A stretch of DNA of 57,348 nucleotides from Candidatus Latescibacterota bacterium (GCA_038279365.1 JAYODI010000029.1:1-57348), one strand, 5' to 3'. Shown: positions 1,829 through 47,568, counted from the first letter of the stretch. Numbers and translations are program-made. The notes: generated by a model from the sequence alone, not told the origin.

Positions 1829-3108
1829 ACCGCTTTCAATGCCTCATAATTGGCTTTGACCGTTGTCTCAATATCCTGATCTGTATGTGCCAAAGACACA
1901 AATGCACCCTCAAATTGAGAAGGGGCCAAATAGATACCGCGCTGTAACATTTCGCGAAAATACCGCGCGAACAACTCTTGATCACACGCATTGGCAGCCT
2001 CAAAAGTGGTTACGGGTTGTTCTGAAAAGAACAAGGTCATCATAGACCCCACCCGATTAATATGGTATTTGAGACCCAATGTCTTCAGGTTTTCTTTTAT
2101 ACCGAGTTCCAATGCCGCAGAGCGTTTTTCCAAAGTCTCATATACAGACGCATCTCGTAAGCGTTTTACAGTTTCATACCCAGCCGTCATAGCCAAAGGG
2201 TTACCAGATAGCGTGCCAGCCTGCGACACTTTTTTGCCCAATGGTGATATATCAGACATAATCTCCCGCTTCCCCCCAAAAGCCCCCACAGGTAAACCGC
2301 CGCCTATAATCTTTCCCAATGTTGTCAGATCGGGCGTAATACCATAAAGCCCTTGTGCCCCCCCAGCCCCCACACGAAAGCCAGTAATCACCTCATCAAA
2401 AATAAGCACAATACCCAAATCAGCAGTCAATTCGCGCAAACCACTCAAAAAGTTAGGCGCAGGTGGTACCACTCCCATGTTACCAGCAACGGGTTCTACG
2501 ATAATAGCTGCTATTTCGCCTTTGTTTTCGGCCACAGCTTTTTGCACAGCCTCCAAATTGTTGTAAGGCACAGTAATCGAATCTGCAGCTGTACCAGGTG
2601 TCACCCCAGGGCTGCTGGGTGCACCCAATGTTAAAGCCGATGAACCTGCTTGAATTAAAAAACTATCGGCATGGCCATGCCAACAACCTTCAAACTTGAT
2701 AATCTTATTTTTGCCCGTATGGCCTCTTGCCAATCGAATGGCCGACATGGTTGCTTCTGTTCCAGAGTTAACCATGCGCACCATTTCGATAGAAGGCACC
2801 ATCTCGGTCACCAAAGTGGCCATATCAACTTCTATTTGTGTTGGGGCACCGAAACTCGTGCCCTTTGTACACGCATTTTGAATGGCCTTATTCACTTCGG
2901 GGTGGGCGTGACCCAAAATTAATGGCCCCCAAGAACACACATAGTCAATATAAGTATTGCCGTCAGCATCTTTAATGTGTGAACCATGTCCTTCAGCAAT
3001 AAACAACGGCCCCCCTCCAACGGCACCAAATGCACGTGCCGGACTGTTTACCCCCCCAGGGATCACCTGTTGTGCCGCCTCAAAAAGCTCATTCGATCGC
3101 GAATGCAA
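1819..3108 (-). CDS. hemL: Glutamate-1-semialdehyde 2,1-aminomutase
   Basis: [62 protein letters not shown] start at 3108 follows GGAGGTG (ORF track 3126). Confidence 0.97.
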
Positions 3109-3336
3109 ATCACACCTCCCAATCATATAGATATTTGTAGGAAATAATCATCCGTATTTCGATATGTTTGATCGCCATATACGACCCTTTTAGATTTCTA
3201 ACACGTCATCCGCAAGGATCTATTCCGACCAACGCCAATTAAGCAAATACTGTCCGACCACGTTCATACCCACTCTGTTTTTATGTTAACCTTAAATATA
3301 CCCCAGGAGCTTCTCTGTCAAGCGATTTCCTTTCAC

Positions 3337-3365
3337 TTGCGTCAAAAGAGAACCGTCCGTATATT
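3337..3365 (+). promoter_or_regulatory. sigma70-type promoter for the tRNA
   Basis: TTGCGT-N17-TATATT, ending 10 nt upstream of the tRNA. A divergent TTGACA at 3321-3316 probably serves hemL. Confidence 0.6.
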
Positions 3366-3374
3366 CTCACCTAT

Positions 3375-3450
3375 GCGGCAGTAGCTCAATGGATAGAGCA
3401 TCTGACTTCGGATCAGACGGTTGGGGGTTCGAGTCCTCTCTGCCGCACCA
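3375..3450 (+). tRNA. tRNA-Arg (anticodon UCG)
   Basis: 76-nt cloverleaf: acceptor GCGGCAG/CTGCCGC, D loop with GG and A20, anticodon arm TCTGA-CTTCGGA-TCAGA, GTTCGAGTC T loop, encoded CCA. Confidence 0.97.
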
Positions 3451-3455
3451 CTTAT

Positions 3456-3484
3456 AGAGGCTCCGATATGATATCGGAGCCTCT
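3456..3484 (+). terminator. Hairpin after the tRNA, probable terminator
   Basis: Perfect 14-bp inverted repeat AGAGGCTCCGATAT-G-ATATCGGAGCCTCT; the U tract is weak. Confidence 0.6.
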
Positions 3485-3529
3485 CTTACATTGTGCCAAC
3501 CTCGGCAAACGCCTTTTATCTTAAGTGCT

Positions 3530-6298
3530 ATGCAAAATCAGATCTCCATTCGCGGTGCACGCCAACACAATCTAAAAAACATAGACATTGATATTCCACG
3601 AAACAGCTTGGTTGTTATCACGGGGCCATCGGGCTCGGGTAAATCGTCATTGGCCTTTGATACCCTCTATGCCGAAGGCCAAAGGCGTTATGTTGAATCT
3701 CTGGCCACCTATGCCCGGCAATTTCTCGATGTGATGGACAAACCAGACGTGGATGCCATTGAGGGGTTATCTCCAGCCATTGCCATTCAACAACGCAGTG
3801 CAACGCGCAATTCGCGCTCAACGGTTGGAACCGTCACCGAAGTTTACGATCACCTTCGGTTGCTCTTTGCCCGCGCAGGCACACCGCACTGCCCAGTTTG
3901 TGGTCAAACCATTTTGCGTCACACCATAGAACAGGCCGTTGATCGTTTGCTCCGACTACCCGAAAAACAACGCATCCAAATTCTATCTCCCCTTGTAAGA
4001 AATGAGAAAGGGGCCCACCTCAGCACTTTTGACACATTGCGCTCTGAAGGTTATATCAGAGCACGTGTTGACGGTGACACCATTGCCTTAGATCACGAAA
4101 TTGCTTTAGACAAATCCATACCGCACACCATTGAAGCCGTGATTGATCGCCTGGTCATCCGCCCAGACATCAACAACCGATTGGCCGACTCGCTCGAAAC
4201 AGCCGCAGATCTTTCTAATGGTGTGGTTACCATTGACATCATAGACGGCGAAGCGTGGACATTCTCTACGCGATTTGCCTGCACGGAAGGCCATTTTGAA
4301 ATAGAAGAACTCGAGCCACGGCTTTTTTCCTTTAATAGCCCACACGGAGCTTGCCCAACTTGTGGCGGGGTAGGATCGATCCCTCAAATTGATCCAGACA
4401 GTCTCATCGCCGACCCTGCTTTATCACTTCTCGATGGCGCCATTGCCCCTTGGGGCATCCCCAAAGGCAAACGTCAGGTTGAGCAACTGCAGCACTTGGC
4501 CAAACACCTGTCCTTTGATCTATCAACAGCCTTTGGTGATTTACCTACCAAAACACAAGAGAGCATTTTAAATGGTGTCAAACAAAAGGGCTTTACATTT
4601 GACGGTATTATTCCAGAAATGCAGCGCCAATTTGATCAAGCTGCCACAGAAGAAACCCAAGAAAAATTGGCACCCTATACACAATACAATACCTGCCCAG
4701 ATTGCAATGGTGCAAAGCTTCGTCCTGAAGCACGCGCCATCACATTGGCAGGACATACCATCAGCGATATCGCCAACCTACCCATCCAAAACTTACATGC
4801 CTTCTTTGATTCACTGGATCTGGCAGACAATATCGGCGAAATTGCAGCCCCTATCATTCGAGAAATCCAGAACCGCCTTAATTTCCTAAAAGATGTTGGC
4901 GTAGATTATCTCACACTGTCTCGAAAGACGGCTACGCTCTCTGGGGGTGAGTTCCAACGCATTCGCTTGGCCACACAAATGGGTACCAAGCTGGTTGGCG
5001 TGCTTTATGTACTCGACGAACCCAGCATGGGTTTACACCCAAGAGACAATCGCAAACTCATCTCCACATTCTGCCAATTACGCGATTTGGGCAACTCAGT
5101 CATTGTCGTAGAACACGACAGCGAGACCATGTGCACAGCAGATCATCTCATTGACCTTGGACCTGGCGCAGGAGAATTAGGCGGTGAACTCATTGCACAA
5201 GGCACCCCCAAAGAAGTGATGGCCAATCCCGACTCGCTCACCGGGGCGTATTTATCTCAGACAAAAACCATCCCGCCACCGCCCAATGCCCGATCAGCCA
5301 AAAGCCATATTACCATCACCAAAGCAACGGGCAATAATCTTCAATCTGTTACAGCCCAAATCCCCCTTGGTGTATTTGTGTGTATCACCGGTGTTTCTGG
5401 GTCGGGAAAAAGTTCACTGATTAATGGCACACTTTATCCGGCACTGGCGCACCGTCTTTATAGAGCAACACAAAAACCGTTGCCATTTGGTCAAATTGAA
5501 GGCGACACCCAAATAGACAAAGTCATCCGTGTCGATCAGGCACCCATTGGGCGAACTCCCCGCTCAAATGCGGCCACTTATACGCAATTATTTGGTGCTG
5601 TGCGCGAACTCTATGCCCAATTGCCCGAAGCCAAAGTACGCGGCTATGGTGCAGGGCGTTTTAGCTTTAATATGAAAGGGGGGCGATGTGAAGTTTGTCA
5701 AGGCGATGGGGTTCGCAAAATAGAAATGCACTTTTTGCCCGACGTTTATGTTACCTGCGATGCCTGTGCTGGCATGCGTTACAACCGAGAAACCCTTGAA
5801 GTGCGATTTAAAGGCGCATCCATTGCCGACATACTCAAAATGACCGTTGACCAAGCACTCATTTTTTTTAGAGACATCCCACAAGCCCAACGCCAACTCA
5901 AATCACTTGCCGATGTGGGTTTGGGTTATTTGCGTTTGGGGCAACCAGCCACAGCCCTGTCTGGCGGAGAAGCCCAACGCATCAAACTGGCAGCAGAACT
6001 GTCTAAAATATCTACGGGCAATACACTTTATCTGCTTGACGAACCCACCACCGGATTGCATTTTGAAGACATTCGCGTCCTCATAGACGTATTGGACCGT
6101 CTGGTGGATCGAGGCAATACTGTGCTTGTGATTGAACACAACCTTGATGTGATTAAACGCGCAGACTGGATCATCGACCTTGGCCCAGATGGCGGTTCTG
6201 GAGGGGGACAAATAGTCGCCACAGGCACACCCGAGCAAGTGGCCCAAAATCCACATTCTTATACAGGTCGATTTCTCAAAGAGGTATTGGCATTATGA
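3530..6298 (+). CDS. uvrA: Excinuclease ABC subunit A
   Basis: [10 protein letters not shown], two Walker A motifs ([16 protein letters not shown]), two LSGGE signatures and CxxC zinc sites. ATG 3530 fits the family N-terminus (ORF track 3491). Confidence 0.98.
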
Positions 6299-11199: not shown

Positions 11200-13506
11200 C
11201 TATTTTTTATTGACCATATATGCCACCCAAATGCTCACTTCATAAAGCACCACAAGGGGCAATGCCATGAGCACTTGCGAAATGGGATCGGGGGGCGTCA
11301 ATATTGCCGCCAAAATAAACCCAATAAGAATGGCGTATCGACGACCTTTGCGCAATCGATCTGCAGTGGCAATACCCAGTTTGGCCAAAAAGAATGTCAA
11401 AACAGGTAGTTCAAAAACCAACCCAAATGCCAGCAACAATCGAATCACAAAACTGATATACAAACCAATATCAAACTGAGCCGTCACCCCAGTATCGGCC
11501 GTCATCCCCACAAAGAAAACCATTGCCATTGGAATCACAAACCAATAGGCCAAAAGCGCACCCAAACCAAAACACAAGGTTGAGGAACCAATTACAAATG
11601 TTGCAAAATGTCGCTCGCGTGCAAACAATCCAGGCGCAATAAACAACCAAAGTTGGTAAATCAAAATGGGCAATGCCAAGATGCCTCCTCCCACCAGAGC
11701 AATTTCCAATTTGACCATAAACATGCCCATAGGCTTCAATGTCTGCAAAACGGGAGGAAATTCCATAACCCGGATTGGGCGGATCAATACCCGCAAAATA
11801 TCATCGACAAAAATACCACAAAATATGGCCCCAACAATAATGGCGGCCAAACCCTTCAAAATATGCCAACGCAATTCCTCTAAGTGGTCCAAAAAAGGCA
11901 TGGGCTTGCCGTTGTCTACCAAACCATCTTCAGAGGTCGTTCCAATTGATGCCACCGTTCCCTCAGGTACTCGGCGCGTCATGGCTTCTGTTGTATCGGG
12001 TGTTTCTTCTGGGCGTCGAATGGCGGCCACCACAACGCCCATCAACATCATCACCAAACACAACTGAGAAAACAAATCGCCAAATTGTACATAAATTGAT
12101 TGATCTGTTCGACGAACCACATTTTCATGCAAAACGGCTTCATGAAAAATACCCGTCTCTTGCAACCGACGCCCATAAGGGTCGATAAACATAGACACAC
12201 CCGTATTGGCACATCGAACAACCGATCTTCGATTTTCTATTGCGCGAAACACCGACATTTCAGCATGCTGATAAGGCCCCGATGTATCACCAAACCACCC
12301 ATCATTTGTAATCACCACCAAAAATTCTGCACCTGCAGCCGTCAAATCTCTTGCCAACCAAGGAAACACCGAATCAAAACAAATCAACCCCGAAAATTTA
12401 CCCCCAGGCATTTCAAAAACCGTACGTGCTGTGCCCGATTCAAAATCGCCACTGACATATCCTGCACCACTCCATTGAATGTCCCTCAAAATCGAAAGCA
12501 ATTTCGGGAACGGTGCCCGCTCACCAAATGGCACCACTTTCACTTTGTCATAATAAGGGAGGTCACCGCCACCGGGTGCAAAGAAAAAAGACGAATTATA
12601 GCGCCGATCTCTCACAGGATCTTCTTCGTATCGGTTGGCCCCCATATAAAGATAAATGCCCAAAGAATCGACCAATGTTTGCGTCCAGGCTTGATACGTA
12701 CGATGCACTGGGCTTTTAAAATAGGCAGGCAAGGCCGCTTCAGACCACACCACCAACTCGGCTCCCGTTTCTTTGGCCTGAATGGTCAACGGTTTGAGAC
12801 GATCAAAATTGTAGTCGAAACCCCAATGTGACTTTTCAACTGGTGGAATATTTTGTTGTACCAAAGCCACAGACACATCGCCTTGCGGCACCGGCTCTGA
12901 CAACCGCCATACCCCAAAGGCCAAAGGAAGTGCAAAACACAGGGCAAGCACCCCGACCCATTTGCCACGTTGTTCACTTTGGCTCAGGCTCAAAACCACC
13001 AAATTAATCAGCACCACCCAAAACGAAACCCCATAAACCCCTGTTGCTTCGGCAAATTGAATCAAGGGCAAATAATCGGCTTGTGTATGCCCCAACAACA
13101 CCCAAGAAAAACCCATATCACTGAGCGTATTAAAATATTCAAATCCAACCCATATAAAAGGGGTTAGCCACACCCCCAAATGAGAGGTGCGTTTTAGAAT
13201 AAAAGCCCACACCCACACAAACAAACCACGAAACAACGCCATATAAAAAATGGCACCCGCCATACCAGGTGGCGTAATCCAGGCAATCCAATAAAGGGTT
13301 GCGCCATAAAACACCACCCCTTGTACAAAACCTGCACCAAAAGCACCCCGACCACTCAAGTTTTTTGCAGAAACCACCAAAGGCAACAAACTAAAATAGA
13401 CCAAAAACCCCAATGGCAACGGCGGAAAAGCCGCAGCCATAATCACCCCAGATAAGGCCGGATAAACAAGCGTCAATGTCCACCAAGAATAACGGTCTTG
13501 CCCCAT
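11200..13506 (-). CDS. lnt-tatC: Fused apolipoprotein N-acyltransferase (Lnt) and twin-arginine translocase subunit TatC
   Basis: N-part: VQQNIP, VWSEAA, YDKVKVVPFGE, LICFD, ITNDGWFG..SGPYQH, RAIENRR, RCANTGVS. C-part: MPFLDHLEELR, YQLWLFIAPGL, FGLVFELP, AAILTPPDPISQ, PLVVLYE. One frame with no stop; ATG 13506 follows GGAG (ORF track 13548). Confidence 0.93.
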   Translation of the reverse strand: MGQDRYSWWTLTLVYPALSGVIMAAAFPPLPLGFLVYFSLLPLVVSAKNLSGRGAFGAGFVQGVVFYGATLYWIAWITPPGMAGAIFYMALFRGLFVWVWAFILKRTSHLGVWLTPFIWVGFEYFNTLSDMGFSWVLLGHTQADYLPLIQFAEATGVYGVSFWVVLINLVVLSLSQSEQRGKWVGVLALCFALPLAFGVWRLSEPVPQGDVSVALVQQNIPPVEKSHWGFDYNFDRLKPLTIQAKETGAELVVWSEAALPAYFKSPVHRTYQAWTQTLVDSLGIYLYMGANRYEEDPVRDRRYNSSFFFAPGGGDLPYYDKVKVVPFGERAPFPKLLSILRDIQWSGAGYVSGDFESGTARTVFEMPGGKFSGLICFDSVFPWLARDLTAAGAEFLVVITNDGWFGDTSGPYQHAEMSVFRAIENRRSVVRCANTGVSMFIDPYGRRLQETGIFHEAVLHENVVRRTDQSIYVQFGDLFSQLCLVMMLMGVVVAAIRRPEETPDTTEAMTRRVPEGTVASIGTTSEDGLVDNGKPMPFLDHLEELRWHILKGLAAIIVGAIFCGIFVDDILRVLIRPIRVMEFPPVLQTLKPMGMFMVKLEIALVGGGILALPILIYQLWLFIAPGLFARERHFATFVIGSSTLCFGLGALLAYWFVIPMAMVFFVGMTADTGVTAQFDIGLYISFVIRLLLAFGLVFELPVLTFFLAKLGIATADRLRKGRRYAILIGFILAAILTPPDPISQVLMALPLVVLYEVSIWVAYMVNKK

Positions 13507-13507
13507 C

Positions 13508-15172
13508 CTATCTCCCATCACTGGCCACAGGCCACACCAGCGGCCCACTTTTAAATGGCCGAATCAGTTGATTTTCTACACCATAAAAAAACTCATGGCC
13601 ATGTGCGCGCGGTGCATACCAAACACGCTCTACAATTTCGCGATTGCCACGCATTTCATCCAAGGTAGCCAAACGCGTATTGTCTAATGTATGAAACCAC
13701 ACCCCCAGCATTCCATCGATCACCACCGCACCAATAGGCGTTTCAACCAACGTACACAAATGCCCACGTAACCCCATAGACAAAGCACGCAATGGAACCC
13801 CCAATCGAGCACCTATTTTTTCTGCTAATAGTGCCGTCAAACGCGACGTATCGCCACAAAAGCACCCCGCCAAACGAGGAATCGTTTCTATAGATGCGCC
13901 ATTGGACACACGCGACCATGTAGATGAATGGCGCGTGACACACGGATGATGCACCCACATAGCCACCGCACACAGGGCATCTTGCCAATTGGGAAATCGG
14001 CTCGAAATCACTGCCGAAACTTGATCCAAAGCATTGGTTGCAGACAAATCAACGCTGGCATCACCGTCTTTGTCTACCAAATAAAAGTCTGAGGGTGCAC
14101 CCTCTTGTGTGGTTTCCATCGCATAATTGGGCAAATGACTCAAAATATAAGACCGAAACGCATCCAAAAAATCGGCATGATTCGAATCGGGGCGTGTCAC
14201 CCGAGCTCCCCCAAATTGTTCGCGCACCAAAATGCCCGTATCAAAACCAAAAGGAAAAGCCCCTGCCCAAATATGAACACCCGTATCGTCTAGCACATCA
14301 ATATGCAATCGAGCAACATTTGCCAATCCATTGGCCCACTTGGCCCGAAAAGGAAAGATCAGGGGAACCTCAATATCTCCCGAGCCCCCATCGCATCGCC
14401 AATCAAATGGCCCTTGTTCATACACACCATCTGTTGGCAAATCTATGCGTACCATCACCTGCCCAGTGTGTATGCCACTTTGGGAAAACCGACATTTCAA
14501 AAAAATAGGACTTGGGTCGCCCCCCCAAATGGGTTTGCCCAAATCCATCGCATCTACACACATTGTCGGATCGGTTTGATACAAATCGCCAAAAACCAAA
14601 GGCGTATCTCGCGTCCAAGTCACACGATTGGGCCACGCCAATGAATCGGGCATGGGCGTTTCGTGAAACCCAACACGCAGCGACAAACCCGCCAATCCAC
14701 ACGTATGCCACAATCCTTGATCTGGCAATGACACACGCGCAAAAAAACGCGCATCATCCAAATATGCAAACTCACCTTGGGCATCAGCTGGTGCATTTAA
14801 CACTTGCACAGCGTCATCACCCAATTCTTCTCCTGGACAAGCAAAATGCGCTTCTCGAACCACCTCACCCCGATCATCAACTGCGTATAACCAGCGTGTG
14901 GCATGATCATGCTCTGGGTTAAGCAACACAGCCAAATGCGCACGATTATACCACTCTTCGTGATCGGGGCGCGCACCAAAAGGGTTCAAACCTTCGGCCA
15001 GTACAGAAATAATGAGTTGACCTTCGCACAAAGAAATACCCACATGTGCCTTGCGCCCATCGGTATCGGGCCCTAACATGAGGGTATATTCACCACCTAA
15101 TAAGTGCGAAACATCAAATGCCTGCCCATTGGCTACGACTTGAGGCGTATGTAAAACTTGTGCCCAACGCAT
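13508..15172 (-). CDS. Hypothetical protein, possible C-terminal transglutaminase-like domain
   Basis: Long ORF co-oriented with lnt-tatC; GCFCGD...RGHLCTLV...VIDG spacing. Start uncertain (ATG 15172 or GTG 15205). Confidence 0.7.
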   Translation of the reverse strand: MRWAQVLHTPQVVANGQAFDVSHLLGGEYTLMLGPDTDGRKAHVGISLCEGQLIISVLAEGLNPFGARPDHEEWYNRAHLAVLLNPEHDHATRWLYAVDDRGEVVREAHFACPGEELGDDAVQVLNAPADAQGEFAYLDDARFFARVSLPDQGLWHTCGLAGLSLRVGFHETPMPDSLAWPNRVTWTRDTPLVFGDLYQTDPTMCVDAMDLGKPIWGGDPSPIFLKCRFSQSGIHTGQVMVRIDLPTDGVYEQGPFDWRCDGGSGDIEVPLIFPFRAKWANGLANVARLHIDVLDDTGVHIWAGAFPFGFDTGILVREQFGGARVTRPDSNHADFLDAFRSYILSHLPNYAMETTQEGAPSDFYLVDKDGDASVDLSATNALDQVSAVISSRFPNWQDALCAVAMWVHHPCVTRHSSTWSRVSNGASIETIPRLAGCFCGDTSRLTALLAEKIGARLGVPLRALSMGLRGHLCTLVETPIGAVVIDGMLGVWFHTLDNTRLATLDEMRGNREIVERVWYAPRAHGHEFFYGVENQLIRPFKSGPLVWPVASDGR

Positions 15173-43810: not shown

Positions 43811-44061
43811 AAAAACTCCCCAACATCTTTACCAAATGAACACAGGTATATACAGCAACAGAACGCCTAACAATACCAGCTTTTTGCAAATCAGTCAAGT
43901 TAGAAGACACGTCTATTGAAACACAGCAAACGCCTCCTTAAGTGTCTGACAATGCCCCGTTCCAACAGATCGGTCTCACCGCTGCACCATATGGGTCATT
44001 TTTCGATTGCCCAATCTTACCTAAGTCCCTACAAAAGCAAGATGTGGCGCAAAAATAGGTC

Positions 44062-44091
44062 TTGACTTAGAACACGCGATAGCTATATATT
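44062..44091 (+). promoter_or_regulatory. Probable sigma70 promoter for the mamA-like/mamK-like cluster
   Basis: TTGACT-N18-TATATT, about 210 nt upstream of the TTG start. Confidence 0.5.
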
Positions 44092-44300
44092 GTAGGACAT
44101 TACGGCAAATCTTCCCTATTTGTCACATATCTTGCATATCTTCACCTCCCCCACATTTTGGTGATCCTTATCCTATTGGTCTAACAATTCATTTTGGTCA
44201 CCACCATTTAAGATACATCCTCTTTGTTGCAACTCCATTCTATTAAATTTCGAATTCACCGTTAGTTCGGCCTATTCAACCATACCAAGGGAGACTTGCC

Positions 44301-45158
44301 TTGAGCGCAGGGAACCAAGCCAGTAACACCAAGCGGGGCACGGGCAAAGTTTTTGGCTCATCCCAGTCGGGCAATGTAAACATTCAAAAGCGCGACCCAA
44401 TCAGTGAATATACACGTTCTCATTTAGAAAGTGAGGCTACCCAAACGCCACAAACAGGAGAGCTTCTCCCACAAGAATGGGAACTCATAGAAACCGACGA
44501 AAATGCCATTCCTGAAGAAGACATTCTTCAAAGATTGGATCGCATTGAAAAGCGTTTAGACGCATTTGAAAACACCAGCTACACATTCTTGCTCTATGCC
44601 AAACAGCTTACAGACCGAACAGTGTCTTTCTTTGAAGATATTTTTGGCCTCAGCAGTGGCGATCTGTCACAAATTCACGACCGATTGGGCATCAATTACA
44701 ACAACAAAGGCGATTATCCCAAAGCAATAGAAGCCTTTCAGAAGTTGGTGGGGCTCACACCATCGGCACCCGCTTTTTACAAACTCGGTGTGGCCTATGG
44801 CAACAACAATGACTTTCAAGAAGCCATTGAAGCCTATCGCAAAGCCATTTCTCTTGATCCTCAATATCTCAGTCCCTATTACAAATTGGCCGATGTTTAT
44901 GCCAAAACAGAAAACTTTGGCGAAGCCATCCGATGCCTCACACAGGCCGTAGACATCAATGCCGATGTCGCAGAAAGCCATTTCCGGCTTGGCAGTGTGC
45001 ACGATGCCAGAGGGGCCTACGATCAAGCCATTGCAGCCTTTAATCGGGTGCTCGCACTCAATGCCAATTACCCTGGCATTTACCAAAGCTTAGGTATCGC
45101 CTACGAACAAAAGGGCGAGCACAACCGCGCCATTGAATTCTTCAAAAAGTCGATCTAA
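44301..45158 (+). CDS. TPR protein, MamA-like
   Basis: About 5 TPR motifs. Pre-TPR helix and C-terminus (FRLG..D..G.YD.AI..F...L.L; YEQ.G.H..A..FKK) align with recalled MamA. TTG start follows AGGGAG. Confidence 0.8.
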   Translation: MSAGNQASNTKRGTGKVFGSSQSGNVNIQKRDPISEYTRSHLESEATQTPQTGELLPQEWELIETDENAIPEEDILQRLDRIEKRLDAFENTSYTFLLYAKQLTDRTVSFFEDIFGLSSGDLSQIHDRLGINYNNKGDYPKAIEAFQKLVGLTPSAPAFYKLGVAYGNNNDFQEAIEAYRKAISLDPQYLSPYYKLADVYAKTENFGEAIRCLTQAVDINADVAESHFRLGSVHDARGAYDQAIAAFNRVLALNANYPGIYQSLGIAYEQKGEHNRAIEFFKKSI

Positions 45159-45163
45159 CCACT

Positions 45164-45643
45164 ATGAGTATCCGCAATTTAACAACCCAAGTGCACCGAG
45201 AAAACACAGAGCACCAACGCGTGCAACAATTTCAATCTGTGCGATCTGCATCCAATGCGCCCGAGACCAAACAAAGTGTTGTCAAACAAACACCATTTTT
45301 AGTGGGCACTGGCAATCGAAAAGAGCGGGTGCCAGATCCATCAGCCGATCTTACAGTGCCCCCGCCAACAGCCACTCCCAAAATAGGTCTCAAGGAACGT
45401 GCTTCACAAACGACCTATGGTATTCCAGGGGGCATTGTTGCGCGTTTTGGTCGAGAAGCCCTTAAACAAACTACGACACAAGCTGAAAACAAAACAACAC
45501 CAGAACCTGTACGAGCAGAGTTGCCGGCAGAAGAAAACACAAAAGAAGCCGACGAACTCGAATTGCTACAGGTCCCAGAAGAACAGGAGCGGGTAACCGA
45601 AGAAGAAGCTACCCGCATCACCATCGAACTCCAATCTCACTGA
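45164..45643 (+). CDS. Hypothetical protein, low-complexity with an acidic C-terminal third
   Basis: 5 nt after the previous stop and 11 nt before the next ORF; rich in Glu/Thr/Pro/Gln; no TM segment. Confidence 0.7.
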   Translation: MSIRNLTTQVHRENTEHQRVQQFQSVRSASNAPETKQSVVKQTPFLVGTGNRKERVPDPSADLTVPPPTATPKIGLKERASQTTYGIPGGIVARFGREALKQTTTQAENKTTPEPVRAELPAEENTKEADELELLQVPEEQERVTEEEATRITIELQSH

Positions 45644-45654
45644 GAAAGGACGCA

Positions 45655-46773
45655 TTGGACATGGCGGATGAAACCGGCCCAAGCGCCCCGTTTGAAACCC
45701 CCGTTGATCCCACACCTGCCGGACGCACAACCGTCCCTCCATCGGGCGATATATTATACCTCGGTGTCGATTTGGGCACAGCAAACTGTTCGGTGGCGAC
45801 AAGCACAGACATTACCCGTACAGTCCCCAGTGTGGTCGGGTGGCCCAAAGATCTCGTTGCTTACAAATTTCTACAAAAGTCCATCGTGTTTGGCGAAGAA
45901 AGTATTCGCAATCGCATGGCCTTAGACTTGTTTTACCCGCTTGAAAAAGGCGTTTTGAAATATCGTCCATCAGAAGGTGGCAACATAGATGGCGAAAACC
46001 GCGAAGCTGCAGCGGTTGAAGAATTGGTTCGCCATGTGATTCAACTGGCAGAAATCAAACCCGGTCAATCTGTGCGTGCCGTTGTCGGTGCCCCCGCATT
46101 GGCCAGCGTAAGTGACAAACAAGCCATCATCGACGTCATGCAAGGCCTTGTCGATTCCGTCATTGTTGTTTCTGAACCCTTTCTTGTCGCTTATGGTTTG
46201 GGCTTTTATAACAACGCCCTCGTTGTTGATATCGGTGCAGGCACCTTAGATATGTGTCGCATGCATGGTACCATTCCCGAAGATGAAGATCAGCGCACGC
46301 TTTATAAAGCGGGCAATTTCATCGACGAACAGTTTCATGCACTCTTACAAGACAAAATTCAAGATTCACCCATTTCGCGTCATTTGGCCACAGCCATCAA
46401 AGAGCGTTATTCATTTGTTTCTCCCATCACCGAGGGCATCAGTGTCGAATTCCAAGTCGGTGGCAAACCCGTTTTATACAACATTGCCCAAGAGCTTAAA
46501 TCGGCCTGTGAAAGCATCTTGCCCGATACCCTTTCTGCCATTCGCGAACTGATCACCACTTTTGAGCCCGAGTTTCAAGACGAATTGCGCAATCACATTG
46601 TATTGGCAGGTGGTGGCAGTCAAATTAAAGGCCTACCCGAAGTCATTGAAACCAATCTCGCCGAATTTGGTTCTGCGCGCGTAACCGCCGTAGATGACCC
46701 CGTGTATGCAGGTGCATTAGGTGCGCTCAAACTCGCCCAAGACATGCCCCAAAGCGAATGGGAAAGTGCATAA
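45655..46773 (+). CDS. mamK: MamK-family actin-like ATPase
   Basis: LGVDLGT, SVVGWPKD, YPLEKGVL, VVSEPFLVAYG, VDIGAGT, EDQ.TL.KAGNFIDE, KERYSFV, GKPV, K.ACE.I.PD, F.PEFQ, LAGGGS.I.GL, GALKLA. These follow MamK rather than MreB. Start is TTG 45655 or ATG 45661. Confidence 0.9.
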   Translation: MDMADETGPSAPFETPVDPTPAGRTTVPPSGDILYLGVDLGTANCSVATSTDITRTVPSVVGWPKDLVAYKFLQKSIVFGEESIRNRMALDLFYPLEKGVLKYRPSEGGNIDGENREAAAVEELVRHVIQLAEIKPGQSVRAVVGAPALASVSDKQAIIDVMQGLVDSVIVVSEPFLVAYGLGFYNNALVVDIGAGTLDMCRMHGTIPEDEDQRTLYKAGNFIDEQFHALLQDKIQDSPISRHLATAIKERYSFVSPITEGISVEFQVGGKPVLYNIAQELKSACESILPDTLSAIRELITTFEPEFQDELRNHIVLAGGGSQIKGLPEVIETNLAEFGSARVTAVDDPVYAGALGALKLAQDMPQSEWESA

Positions 46774-46796
46774 AAACAAAGTGACATAGCCCAAAC

Positions 46797-46848
46797 CAAA
46801 AGTCACGAGTCTGCTTCATATTAACGATTCGTGACTTTTGATTTTATT
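46797..46848 (+). terminator. Hairpin between mamK-like and parB-like genes
   Basis: CAAAAGTCACGAGTC-14 nt-GATTCGTGACTTTTG followed by ATTTTATT. Confidence 0.6.
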
Positions 46849-46879
46849 CCAACCCCAGCCATTTTGAAACCCATACTTC

Positions 46880-47494
46880 ATGCCCGACACACTTACCGAA
46901 ATCCCCATCACTCAAATTGATGACCGTCGTGTACCCCTTCGCGAACGCCTCAACGACCCCAACATCAATGGCCTCATGCATTCTATCCAACGCTTTGGCC
47001 TAATTGAACCTATTGTGGTCAGTCCTACAGACGATGGCTACATGCTCGTTATTGGACGTCGGCGGTTTGAGGCCTGTCGGCGTTTGGGTTTTGAAACCAT
47101 TTCGGCCATTGTTCGCAGGCTCTCTACTGAGCGTGCACGTGAGCTTTCTTATCAATCCAACCTCCAAACGCACCCCCTCAACATTGCCGATGAAGTAGAT
47201 TTTCTCAGACGCATCGACATCTTTCGTTTGCCCGATGCCGATGCCGCTCAACAATTGGGCATGACGCCCGCAGAGATGGCCGTGGCCAGACGCTTCAACC
47301 AATTGCCCCCGCCCATTCGCGAAGCCGTTCGCACAGGTGAGCTCGACGAACGACGCGCGTTGGCACTTACGCGATTAAAGCGAGAAACCGATCAAACACG
47401 TGTTTTTCGATATATCCGCGAAAACGACCCGCCCATTGCCCAACTCGAATCACTTATCGATCGCGTTCGCGACGGTCAAGCGCCATACGTTTAA
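46880..47494 (+). CDS. ParB/Spo0J-like protein (ParB N-terminal domain plus HTH-like region)
   Basis: L..SIQRFGLIEPIVV, LVIGRRRFEACRRLG, SNLQTHPLN, AQQLG...LPPPIREAV.TGEL....ALAL. Confidence 0.85.
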   Translation: MPDTLTEIPITQIDDRRVPLRERLNDPNINGLMHSIQRFGLIEPIVVSPTDDGYMLVIGRRRFEACRRLGFETISAIVRRLSTERARELSYQSNLQTHPLNIADEVDFLRRIDIFRLPDADAAQQLGMTPAEMAVARRFNQLPPPIREAVRTGELDERRALALTRLKRETDQTRVFRYIRENDPPIAQLESLIDRVRDGQAPYV

Positions 47495-47510: not shown

Positions 47511-47545
47511 AAAAAAGCCACTGCTGTTACGCAGTGGCTTTTTTT
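47511..47545. terminator. Bidirectional intrinsic terminator
   Basis: AAAAAAGCCACTGC-TGTTAC-GCAGTGGCTTTTTTT. Confidence 0.9.
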
Positions 47546-47568
47546 ATGTCATCATCGCCAACAAATTC

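Follow-up and report, generated by a model that had tools for sequence, protein, structure and literature searches.

A four-gene locus encoding a MamK-family actin, a MamA-like protein and a short ParB-like protein in Candidatus Latescibacterota

The four-gene locus

A stretch of 57,348 nucleotides from a Candidatus Latescibacterota bacterium (GCA_038279365.1, JAYODI010000029.1:1-57348; hereafter the window) carries four genes on one strand that encode, in order, a tetratricopeptide repeat (TPR) protein resembling the magnetosome protein MamA, a disordered protein of 159 amino acids (aa) referred to here as p159, an actin-like ATPase of the MamK family, and a short ParB-like protein (Table 1). 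A first-pass annotation of the window had described these genes as a magnetosome-type scaffold module of four co-oriented genes lying among housekeeping genes such as cyoE and rluD, with no mam gene elsewhere in the 57 kb. The open reading frame (ORF) calls bear out the gene arrangement, and of the 47 further long ORFs in the window, all of them housekeeping or unnamed, none has a match (0/47) to a magnetosome family.

The gaps between the four ORFs measure 5, 11 and 106 bases. To the left, beyond a spacer of 490 bases, lies cyoE on the opposite strand, and to the right, all on the opposite strand as well, are rluD, lspA, a dksA-like gene, a Nudix-like gene and the genes for MTAP, DivIVA and YggS. 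No hydrophobic stretch long enough to span a membrane was found in any of the four proteins.

Table 1. Features of the four-gene locus, with positions counted from the first base of the window
Feature	Position	Strand	Basis
Sigma-70-like promoter candidate for the first three genes (TTGACT, 18 nt, TATATT)	44062..44091	+	10/12 consensus matches
MamA-like TPR protein, 285 aa	44301..45158	+	Pfam and NCBIfam profiles, fold match, orthologue alignment
p159, disordered adaptor candidate, 159 aa	45164..45643	+	Orthologue alignment, charge profile
MamK-family actin-like ATPase, 372 aa	45655..46773	+	Profiles, 5LJW alignment, invariant motifs, tree
Strong hairpin with a T-rich run on its 3' side, in the spacer of the actin and ParB-like genes	46797..46840	+	-22 kcal/mol, z -5.4
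Short ParB-like protein, 204 aa	46880..47494	+	ParB_N and HTH_ParB profiles, structural matches
Stem-loop and T run of terminator type, downstream of the ParB-like gene	47521..47547	+	Sequence scan

Co-inheritance and loss of the four genes

The four genes are inherited and lost as one block. The order TPR gene, variable middle gene, MamK gene and ParB-like gene was found in 9/9 loci from named genomes as far as the contigs reach, and it recurs in two genomes of a further family (L042 and L043). Identity to the proteins of the window is 74-94% for MamK (except for 54% in L042, where the gene is shortened), 52-87% for the TPR protein, 47-87% for the ParB-like protein and 28-52% for the middle protein where it is detectable. 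Within the order, MamK is encoded in nine of 53 genomes, and the short ParB-like gene (at least 62% identity) in eight of these nine, always beside MamK; the ninth carrier has MamK at 3001-4014 of a short contig in a genome of 930 contigs. The short ParB-like gene was found in none of the 44 MamK-less genomes of the order. ParB matches at E <= 1e-10 are present in 51 of the 53 genomes, and all except the short protein are paralogues with 24-32% identity whose open frames run to about 300 aa.

MamK is present in 18 of 49 genera, and its carriage is patchy even within genera: one of two genomes in each of g5 and g7, one of three in g4, and none of 21 in g6. Two non-carriers, G069 and G040, which are congeners of the carriers G070 and G041 respectively, have empty sites in which 100-400 bp separate the ferredoxin-like left-flank gene from rluD with no module between them, and the g6 non-carriers G079 and G081 likewise have no module beside rluD. 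The neighbourhood is conserved with or without the module. In family f3 the downstream flank is a different one and all four genes are kept.

A scan of metagenomes with the ParB-like alignment gave 22 loci, 19 of which encode a relative of at least 46% identity, some possibly from the same organisms as the genomes. MamK lies directly upstream in 18 of these 19 loci, and the TPR gene is present in all ten that reach far enough. The remaining locus (L068:3973-4552) encodes only residues 74-204 of the ParB-like protein, between the usual left flank and rluD, and is a deletion scar in which the first three genes and the beginning of the fourth are gone. Co-conservation of the four genes, on which the first-pass annotation had made its reading depend, is borne out by their presence or absence together between the same flanks, even within a genus, and this distribution fits a chromosomal module in vertical descent with repeated loss. 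Carrier genomes were also larger than those of non-carrier congeners (8.4 versus 5.6 Mb for G070 and G069, 5.7 versus 4.1 Mb for G041 and G040, and 5.4 versus 4.4-4.6 Mb for G066 and G067-G068); these differences are only a hint, as completeness differs.

The sister family f4 encodes MamK in 18 of 76 genomes, with 57-62% identity in the 15 loci fetched and scores of 408-422 bits on the MamK profile. In the three loci whose genes were examined (L029:7405-7941, minus strand; L032:7383-7919, minus strand; L036:9110-9646, plus strand) the actin gene is followed, among metabolic genes, by a gene for a conserved 178-aa coiled-coil protein, a second set of MamK partners that likewise comes without magnetosome genes. 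This protein matches no Pfam family, ends in DKIMGNLTRW and begins with MGIFAFLTxxRLKxELTRQRDE, which resembles the N-terminus of p159. The likeness suggests that this helix may be the part that contacts the actin.

The MamK-family actin

On the NCBIfam MamK profile (NF040964) the actin scores 402.1 bits (403.4 in the genome search), a borderline pass of the cut-off of 400, and the NCBI annotation pipeline already names it a MamK family actin-like protein. It reaches 188.1 bits on the BeeR profile (NF053558), below the cut-off of 530, and 64 bits on the MreB profile; the same genome also encodes an MreB-like gene. The near end-to-end match to MamK that the first-pass annotation had claimed holds up, with the solved MamK structure 5LJW aligned over residues 33-370 (E 1.4e-82, about 41% identity counted from the identity line). 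The corresponding values were E 1.2e-37 for BeeR (8r2n) and 2e-9 for an MreB structure. The ATPase motifs DLGT, SEPF, DxGAGT and AGGGS are all kept, and Glu174 of SEPF is aligned without gaps to residue 143 of 5LJW, which we take to be the catalytic Glu. Residues D39-L-G-T42, E174-P-F176, D192/G194-A-G-T197 and A318-G/G321-S322 are invariant in the 15 aligned actins. The protein has an N-terminal extension of about 30 disordered residues that starts with a conserved MAxETG, and the ATG at 45661 is the likely start rather than position 45655, because AAAGGA stands at 45645-45650.

A search of 1.84 billion representative proteins returned 921 relatives of the actin, 150 of them at E <= 1e-30, and relatives of 37-47% identity come from Nitrospira, Verrucomicrobiota, Acidobacteriota and ANME-2 archaea. 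A quick tree was built from 63 sequences, namely 55 full-length single-domain proteins of the 150, seven from Latescibacterota and the MreB of the same genome, with fragments and long fusions left out. Three of its rows are tied to magnetotactic bacteria and none is a magnetosome MamK of Latescibacteria; labelled magnetotactic anchors are few because names were found for 4/10 and 5/10 of the clusters looked up. The actins of the module (100% support), those of f4 (99%) and one representative of a cluster of bacterium SM23_31 form a clade with 98% support, and BeeR-type sequences form a separate clade (96%). The two sequences that could be tied to Magnetospirillum-type MamK, namely the MamK-like protein of P. 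magneticum AMB-1 (P0183) and an unnamed sequence that scores 508 bits on the MamK profile (P0145), fall in another clade (99%) together with Nitrospinota and Desulfurivibrio sequences, and a Magnetococcales sequence sits on a long branch elsewhere. The tree follows the family grouping of the Latescibacterota.

Whether the actin belongs to the MamK clade, a point on which the first-pass annotation had staked its reading, therefore depends on the yardstick: the actin lies inside the family by the NCBI profile and outside the clade of the two magnetotactic anchors in the tree. On sequence grounds it is a member of the MamK family in the broad sense, which does not imply orthology to magnetosome MamK.

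The relatives include some unusual architectures. Many MamK-family representatives (P0129, P0131, P0133, P0140, P0144 and others) are 700-1232 aa long, with a C-terminal actin domain and a lengthy N-terminal part that matches no Pfam family, and one (P0160, 768 aa) is a fusion of FtsZ and MamK. The P0150 cluster comprises ANME-2 and Methanosarcinales archaea, with 39% identity to the actin of the window and 370.8 bits on the MamK profile.

The MamA-like TPR protein and p159

The TPR protein gives many overlapping matches to Pfam TPR families. Its best NCBIfam match is MamA (NF040959; 145.6 bits, E 1.3e-42, model positions 9-199 of 204), and the next-best family scores 72.8 bits, about half as much. 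As 145.6 bits is below the MamA cut-off of 200, the protein is not MamA by the rule of NCBI. An AlphaFold model made with 11 orthologues has residues 1-69 disordered, is confident from about residue 120, and shows residues 72-284 as five to six helical repeats, with a stretch before the repeats that is very conserved across orthologues. When ranked by structure, designed consensus TPR proteins come ahead of MamA (3vtx/3vty), which is the best natural match with 31% identity and TM-scores of 0.77-0.86 on the target; this is weak evidence, since TPR folds are generic. The homologue search dropped directly from orthologues (at least 57% identity) to generic TPR proteins, with no protein named MamA among the best 120 matches. 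The claim that the likeness to MamA goes beyond that of any TPR protein thus stands in part, MamA scoring about twice as high as the next family and being the best natural fold, and fails at the family cut-off.

Between the TPR protein and the actin, p159 matches no Pfam or NCBIfam family at E <= 0.01, and a search of the Atlas gave no usable match. These searches thus gave no similarity to MamJ, although whether the libraries hold a MamJ model was not checked. Twelve orthologues of p159 share only 20-52% identity, and their alignment has three conserved motifs, namely an N-terminal helix (MSIRxLTxxLxEE..R), a central IPGGIAARFG and, in nine of the twelve, a C-terminal ITIELQSH. The protein had been called an acidic linker, which is right for residues 111-159 (isoelectric point 4.1) and wrong for residues 1-110, which are basic (isoelectric point about 10). 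Complex prediction, made for the single pair of p159 and residues 30-372 of the actin, scored 0.00 against a mark of 0.32, a result that has no bearing for or against binding.

The short ParB-like protein

The product of the fourth gene matches the Pfam families ParB_N (61.5) and HTH_ParB (39.4) and scores 87.6 bits on the ParB domain model TIGR00180 (parB_part), above its cut-off of 58.45; on the Noc model (TIGR04285) it scores 110.7 bits, below the cut-off of 315. The best structural matches were ParB bound to CDP, Noc and Myxococcus ParB, with PadC (6ryk) at rank 30. Canonical chromosomal ParB proteins have a C-terminal dimerisation domain and an N-terminal peptide that stimulates ParA. In the alignment with Spo0J, residue 7 of the short protein pairs with residue 25, and the chain ends about eight residues past the aligned helix-turn-helix (HTH), which leaves no room for an N-terminal extension or peptide or for a C-terminal dimerisation domain. 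The canonical nucleotide-binding motif of ParB is GERRxR. The short protein has GRRR in place of GERR; G59, R61 and R62 are invariant among orthologues, and the position of the Glu is taken by R, K or Q.

The distance from the module to canonical parB is about 38-44 kb in G070, G042, G041, G066 and G043, the five carriers with the two on a single contig, and the region is syntenic in non-carriers too. In the genome of the window, canonical parB is on contig C149, and three perfect 16-base canonical parS sites stand within 2.1 kb of one another at C172:30976, 31040 and 33045.

Transcription signals and RNA evidence

The first-pass annotation had credited the module with its own putative promoter and a terminator. 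Candidate sites are indeed present at 44062-44091 and after 47494, but such sites are no commoner in the sequence than in shuffled versions of it (6 versus 4.7 for promoter-like and 4 versus 4.4 for terminator-like sites). The hairpin in the spacer between the actin and ParB-like genes is found in nine of ten orthologous spacers, where the structure is kept and the sequence is not. Its z-scores range from -2.2 to -9.2, in eight of the ten spacers none of 200 shuffles folds as well, and a T-rich run follows on the 3' side in most loci. It is a candidate terminator or attenuator that would lower expression of the ParB-like gene, or alternatively a candidate protein-binding site. In some loci (L021:11048-11135, L024:11120-11239, L025:11084-11175 and L043:2867-2951) the arms of the hairpin consist of tandem 7-base repeats, for example GTTCCGA, GTTCCAA, GTGCTGA and CCGTGAC, with inverted copies on the opposite arm. 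Such arms are odd for a plain terminator and could form a protein-binding array.

The locus was found in sequencing runs from estuary, marine and salt-marsh samples, including six RNA libraries. Contigs from four metatranscriptome runs of four studies match it, 21 of the 26 contigs being at least 99% alike, and they span the first three genes and part of the ParB-like gene. The junction of the TPR gene and the p159 gene is bridged in two runs and that of the p159 gene and MamK in three; positions 46752-47123 are uncovered in all four runs, which proves nothing about transcription there. Contigs begin at 44122 and 44124 in two runs and at 44013 in one, which is weak support for the promoter because contigs cannot show transcript starts. 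Taken together, the RNA-library contigs are supporting evidence for expression of the module and not proof of it. Contigs of three runs have an extra GAA after position 44513, within the disordered N-terminus of the TPR protein, which is probably strain variation.

Genome setting and the search for magnetosome genes

The window makes up the entire contig C168 of a genome of 6.03 Mb assembled into 199 contigs, with an estimated completeness of 98.5% and an estimated contamination of 7.4%. The close relatives of the locus are in named metagenome-assembled genomes of Latescibacterota, some of them labelled Gemmatimonadetes by their submitters, and three are closed chromosomes. Because these named genomes share both the locus and its flanks, we rejected the possibility that the contig is a contaminant. 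The rest of the window holds housekeeping genes, among them hemL, uvrA, the nuo operon and genes for ABC transporters. One 782-aa ORF (11200-13548, minus strand) matches Lnt over residues 76-460 and TatC over residues 553-769, and may represent a fusion or a pair of genes read through as a single ORF.

A profile search of the full genome did not find MamB, MamM, MamE, MamO, MamP, MamQ or MamI. The best scores were 148.9 for MamE and 83 for MamO (cut-off 800 for each), and both profiles hit the same HtrA-type genes and also produce matches in 12 of 14 ordinary genomes used as controls. MamP scored 32 (cut-off 300), over the PDZ part only, and MamQ had no match. The single cation diffusion facilitator transporter of the genome is ZitB-like and scored 53.6 for MamB and 48.7 for MamM (cut-off 350). 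Across 168 genomes of the phylum no protein exceeded the MamB cut-off, the best score (231.6) coming from a genome without MamK. In five carriers of the module, two assembled as single contigs, two in two contigs and one in 40, MamB was likewise not found, MamQ had no match, and scores reached at most 27.9 for MamP and 167 for MamE.

Comparison with known systems

A literature search found no description of this module of MamK, MamA-like and ParB-like proteins. Among its closest counterparts is the magnetosome chain of MamK, MamA and MamJ, with which it shares the NCBIfam actin family, the end-to-end alignment and conserved ATPase motifs of the actin, a nearby gene for a TPR protein whose best natural match is MamA, and a disordered, partly acidic protein encoded between the two. 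Unlike the chain, the module occurs in a genome without biomineralisation genes, its TPR protein falls below the MamA cut-off, its actin and the magnetotactic anchors fall in different clades, p159 has no family similarity and is basic along two thirds of the chain, and a ParB-like gene is added.

MamK-related actins of organisms without magnetosomes offer a second comparison. BeeR of Verrucomicrobiota (PMC11929497) and saltatorellin of Saltatorellota (10.1101/817700) have been reported to form filaments outside magnetotactic bacteria, and BeeR, like the actin of the module, has a disordered N-terminal extension. The module actin reaches only 188 of the 530 bits of the BeeR cut-off, however, BeeR-type sequences form a clade of their own, and the available passages of both papers describe no TPR or ParB-like partner.

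Two systems that tie a polymer to DNA or to the segregation machinery also resemble the module. In type II partition operons (ParM/ParR/parC) an actin gene is followed by a gene for a small DNA-binding adaptor. The module has the same sequence of an actin gene and a gene for a small protein with a DNA-binding fold, and the same logic of filament plus adaptor; it differs in that the actin is of the MamK family and not ParM, the adaptor has a ParB fold and not a ribbon-helix-helix, the locus is chromosomal with two extra genes, and the six upstream regions hold no centromere-like repeat array, the hairpin ahead of the ParB-like gene being the sole element that recurs. In Myxococcus xanthus, PadC is described as a ParB-fold protein that binds cytidine triphosphate (CTP) and links bactofilin to the chromosome segregation machinery (PMC12704722), again a ParB-fold protein with a cytoskeletal polymer. 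There, however, the polymer is bactofilin and PadC recruits ParA, whereas the module has no ParA gene and PadC ranks only thirtieth among the structural matches. The main text of the survey of ParB-CTPase folds that describes PadC mentions no MamK or actin partner, and its supplements may list such proteins. The ParB-like protein itself resembles ParB/Spo0J and Noc in its N-terminal ParB domain and HTH, its best structural matches and the G-x-R-R that it keeps, and differs from canonical ParB in its length (204 aa against frames of about 300 aa for the paralogue of the order) and in the replaced Glu of GERR. Lastly, CorMR of cyanobacteria, a chromosomal pair of actin and adaptor, is reported to be a DNA-segregation system turned to the control of cell shape (10.1101/2025.06.27.661541).

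Possible functions of the module

The reading that we favour is that the module is a MamK-family filament system of non-magnetotactic Latescibacterota, unrelated to magnetite, in which the ParB-like protein would link the filament to DNA; we put its probability at about one half. Judging from its family, the actin would polymerise with ATP into filaments, as do MamK, BeeR and saltatorellin, and the TPR protein and p159 would act as adaptors that bind through short peptides, as their families lead us to expect. The ParB-like protein is probably a switch that binds CTP and has an HTH of the DNA-binding type; it would tie the filament to DNA, and the filament would position or anchor a chromosomal region.

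Several points weigh against this reading. The contacts among the four proteins are themselves a step that we infer. The stretch of the ParB-like protein aligned with the recognition helix of ParB is non-canonical and bears acidic residues, and DNA binding is uncertain for this reason. No DNA target was found: the region upstream of the module in six loci has no shared direct-repeat array, and the motif of the hairpin is not enriched in the genome of the window, where it is unique. As a hairpin and T run precede the ParB-like gene in 9/10 loci, this gene may be transcribed apart from the other three, and the RNA-library contigs can neither exclude carry-over of DNA nor prove transcription or a single transcript. 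None of the 15 loci obtained from f4 has a TPR or ParB-like gene near MamK, and in the three examined a coiled-coil gene is there instead; the actin therefore has other partners too. As to the absence of magnetite genes, MamI had no match in the genome of the window with a model that rang in no genome at all, and the negative results with the Mam profiles lack a positive control from a deep-branching magnetotactic genome. The cargo is the weakest step of the explanation. We give the DNA step only moderate odds because no site was found, the recognition helix is atypical, and CorMR, as reported, was repurposed to shape.

A somewhat unlikely alternative, yet the best of them, is that the filament positions a cargo other than DNA, for instance an inclusion, organelle or protein assembly, with the TPR protein as coat or adaptor and the ParB-like protein as no more than the regulator of the operon or as a CTP-dependent tether of another kind, in the way that Noc binds membrane. 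Among natural proteins the TPR protein is matched best by MamA, in profile as well as in fold; the missing DNA site, the atypical predicted recognition helix, the hairpin that sets the ParB-like gene apart and the patchy distribution over 18/49 genera, which fits an accessory trait, all sit comfortably with such a cargo. No candidate for it was found, however, no organelle gene lies near any of the loci examined, and the four proteins lack stretches that could span a membrane. Moreover, the ParB-like gene never occurs without MamK and is lost with it, a constancy that exceeds the need of a generic regulator.

Less likely again is a cytoskeleton for cell shape, polarity or division, the role proposed for saltatorellin (10.1101/817700) and one for which CorMR provides a precedent (10.1101/2025.06.27.661541). 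The genes lspA, DivIVA and YggS are only a few genes away from the module; as this neighbourhood is conserved regardless of the module, it says little about a role in shape. Close relatives do without the module altogether, including 21/21 genomes of one genus, and an MreB-like gene is present besides the actin.

There is a slim chance that the ParB-like gene is a neighbour of the actin by descent only and functionally untied to it. A terminator-like hairpin precedes this gene, and the adjoining block of rluD, lspA and dksA shows that genes here can stay syntenic without a functional relation. Unlike rluD, however, the ParB-like gene vanishes with the module (0/44 MamK-less genomes), stays beside MamK where the downstream flank differs, and was itself cut by the L068 deletion that removed the other three genes.

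The possibility raised in the first-pass annotation that the organism is magnetotactic, with the locus as one part of a split magnetosome cluster, is very unlikely and the least credible of all: magnetosome clusters have been reported in Latescibacteria (PMC7449369), the MamK score is above its cut-off and MamA is the best TPR match, but none of MamB, M, E, O, P, Q and I turned up in a nearly complete genome, five further carriers likewise gave no MamB, E, P or Q, no genome of the phylum passes the MamB cut-off, and the actin lies outside the clade that holds the magnetotactic anchors.

Returning to the reading of a filament linked to DNA, its most specific form is one that we consider unlikely as a whole. 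The module would then be an actin-driven machine for positioning or segregating chromosomal DNA, in which the TPR protein and the motif-bearing p159 couple the filament to a ParB-fold nucleotide switch of minimal size that sits on DNA, and the pair of MamA-like protein and MamK would be a precursor-type module or a repurposed descendant of the magnetosome chain.

Conclusions

All four proteins are small and soluble, and the interactions proposed here are therefore testable by heterologous expression, though the organisms are uncultured. If the specific form of our reading were true, the module would be a hybrid of two known partition principles, and its MamA-like and MamK proteins would be the kind of pre-existing module that was recruited for the magnetosome chain, or its repurposed descendant. 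ParB-fold nucleotide switches are a growing group, to which the module adds a possible new class of partner, an actin filament.

Both MamK and MamA count as hallmarks of the magnetosome, and MamK serves as a marker in the search for magnetotactic bacteria. Published work does recognise homologues outside magnetotactic bacteria: among 2798 MamK-like sequences from metagenomes, just 227 were reported with other Mam genes on the same scaffold (PMC7449369). The occurrence of a MamA-like protein and a MamK-family actin with a ParB-fold protein as a unit, without biomineralisation genes, calls for caution when magnetotaxis is assigned from such markers, and the module provides a concrete system in which to study the roles of MamK-type filaments outside magnetosomes and the origin of the chain machinery.

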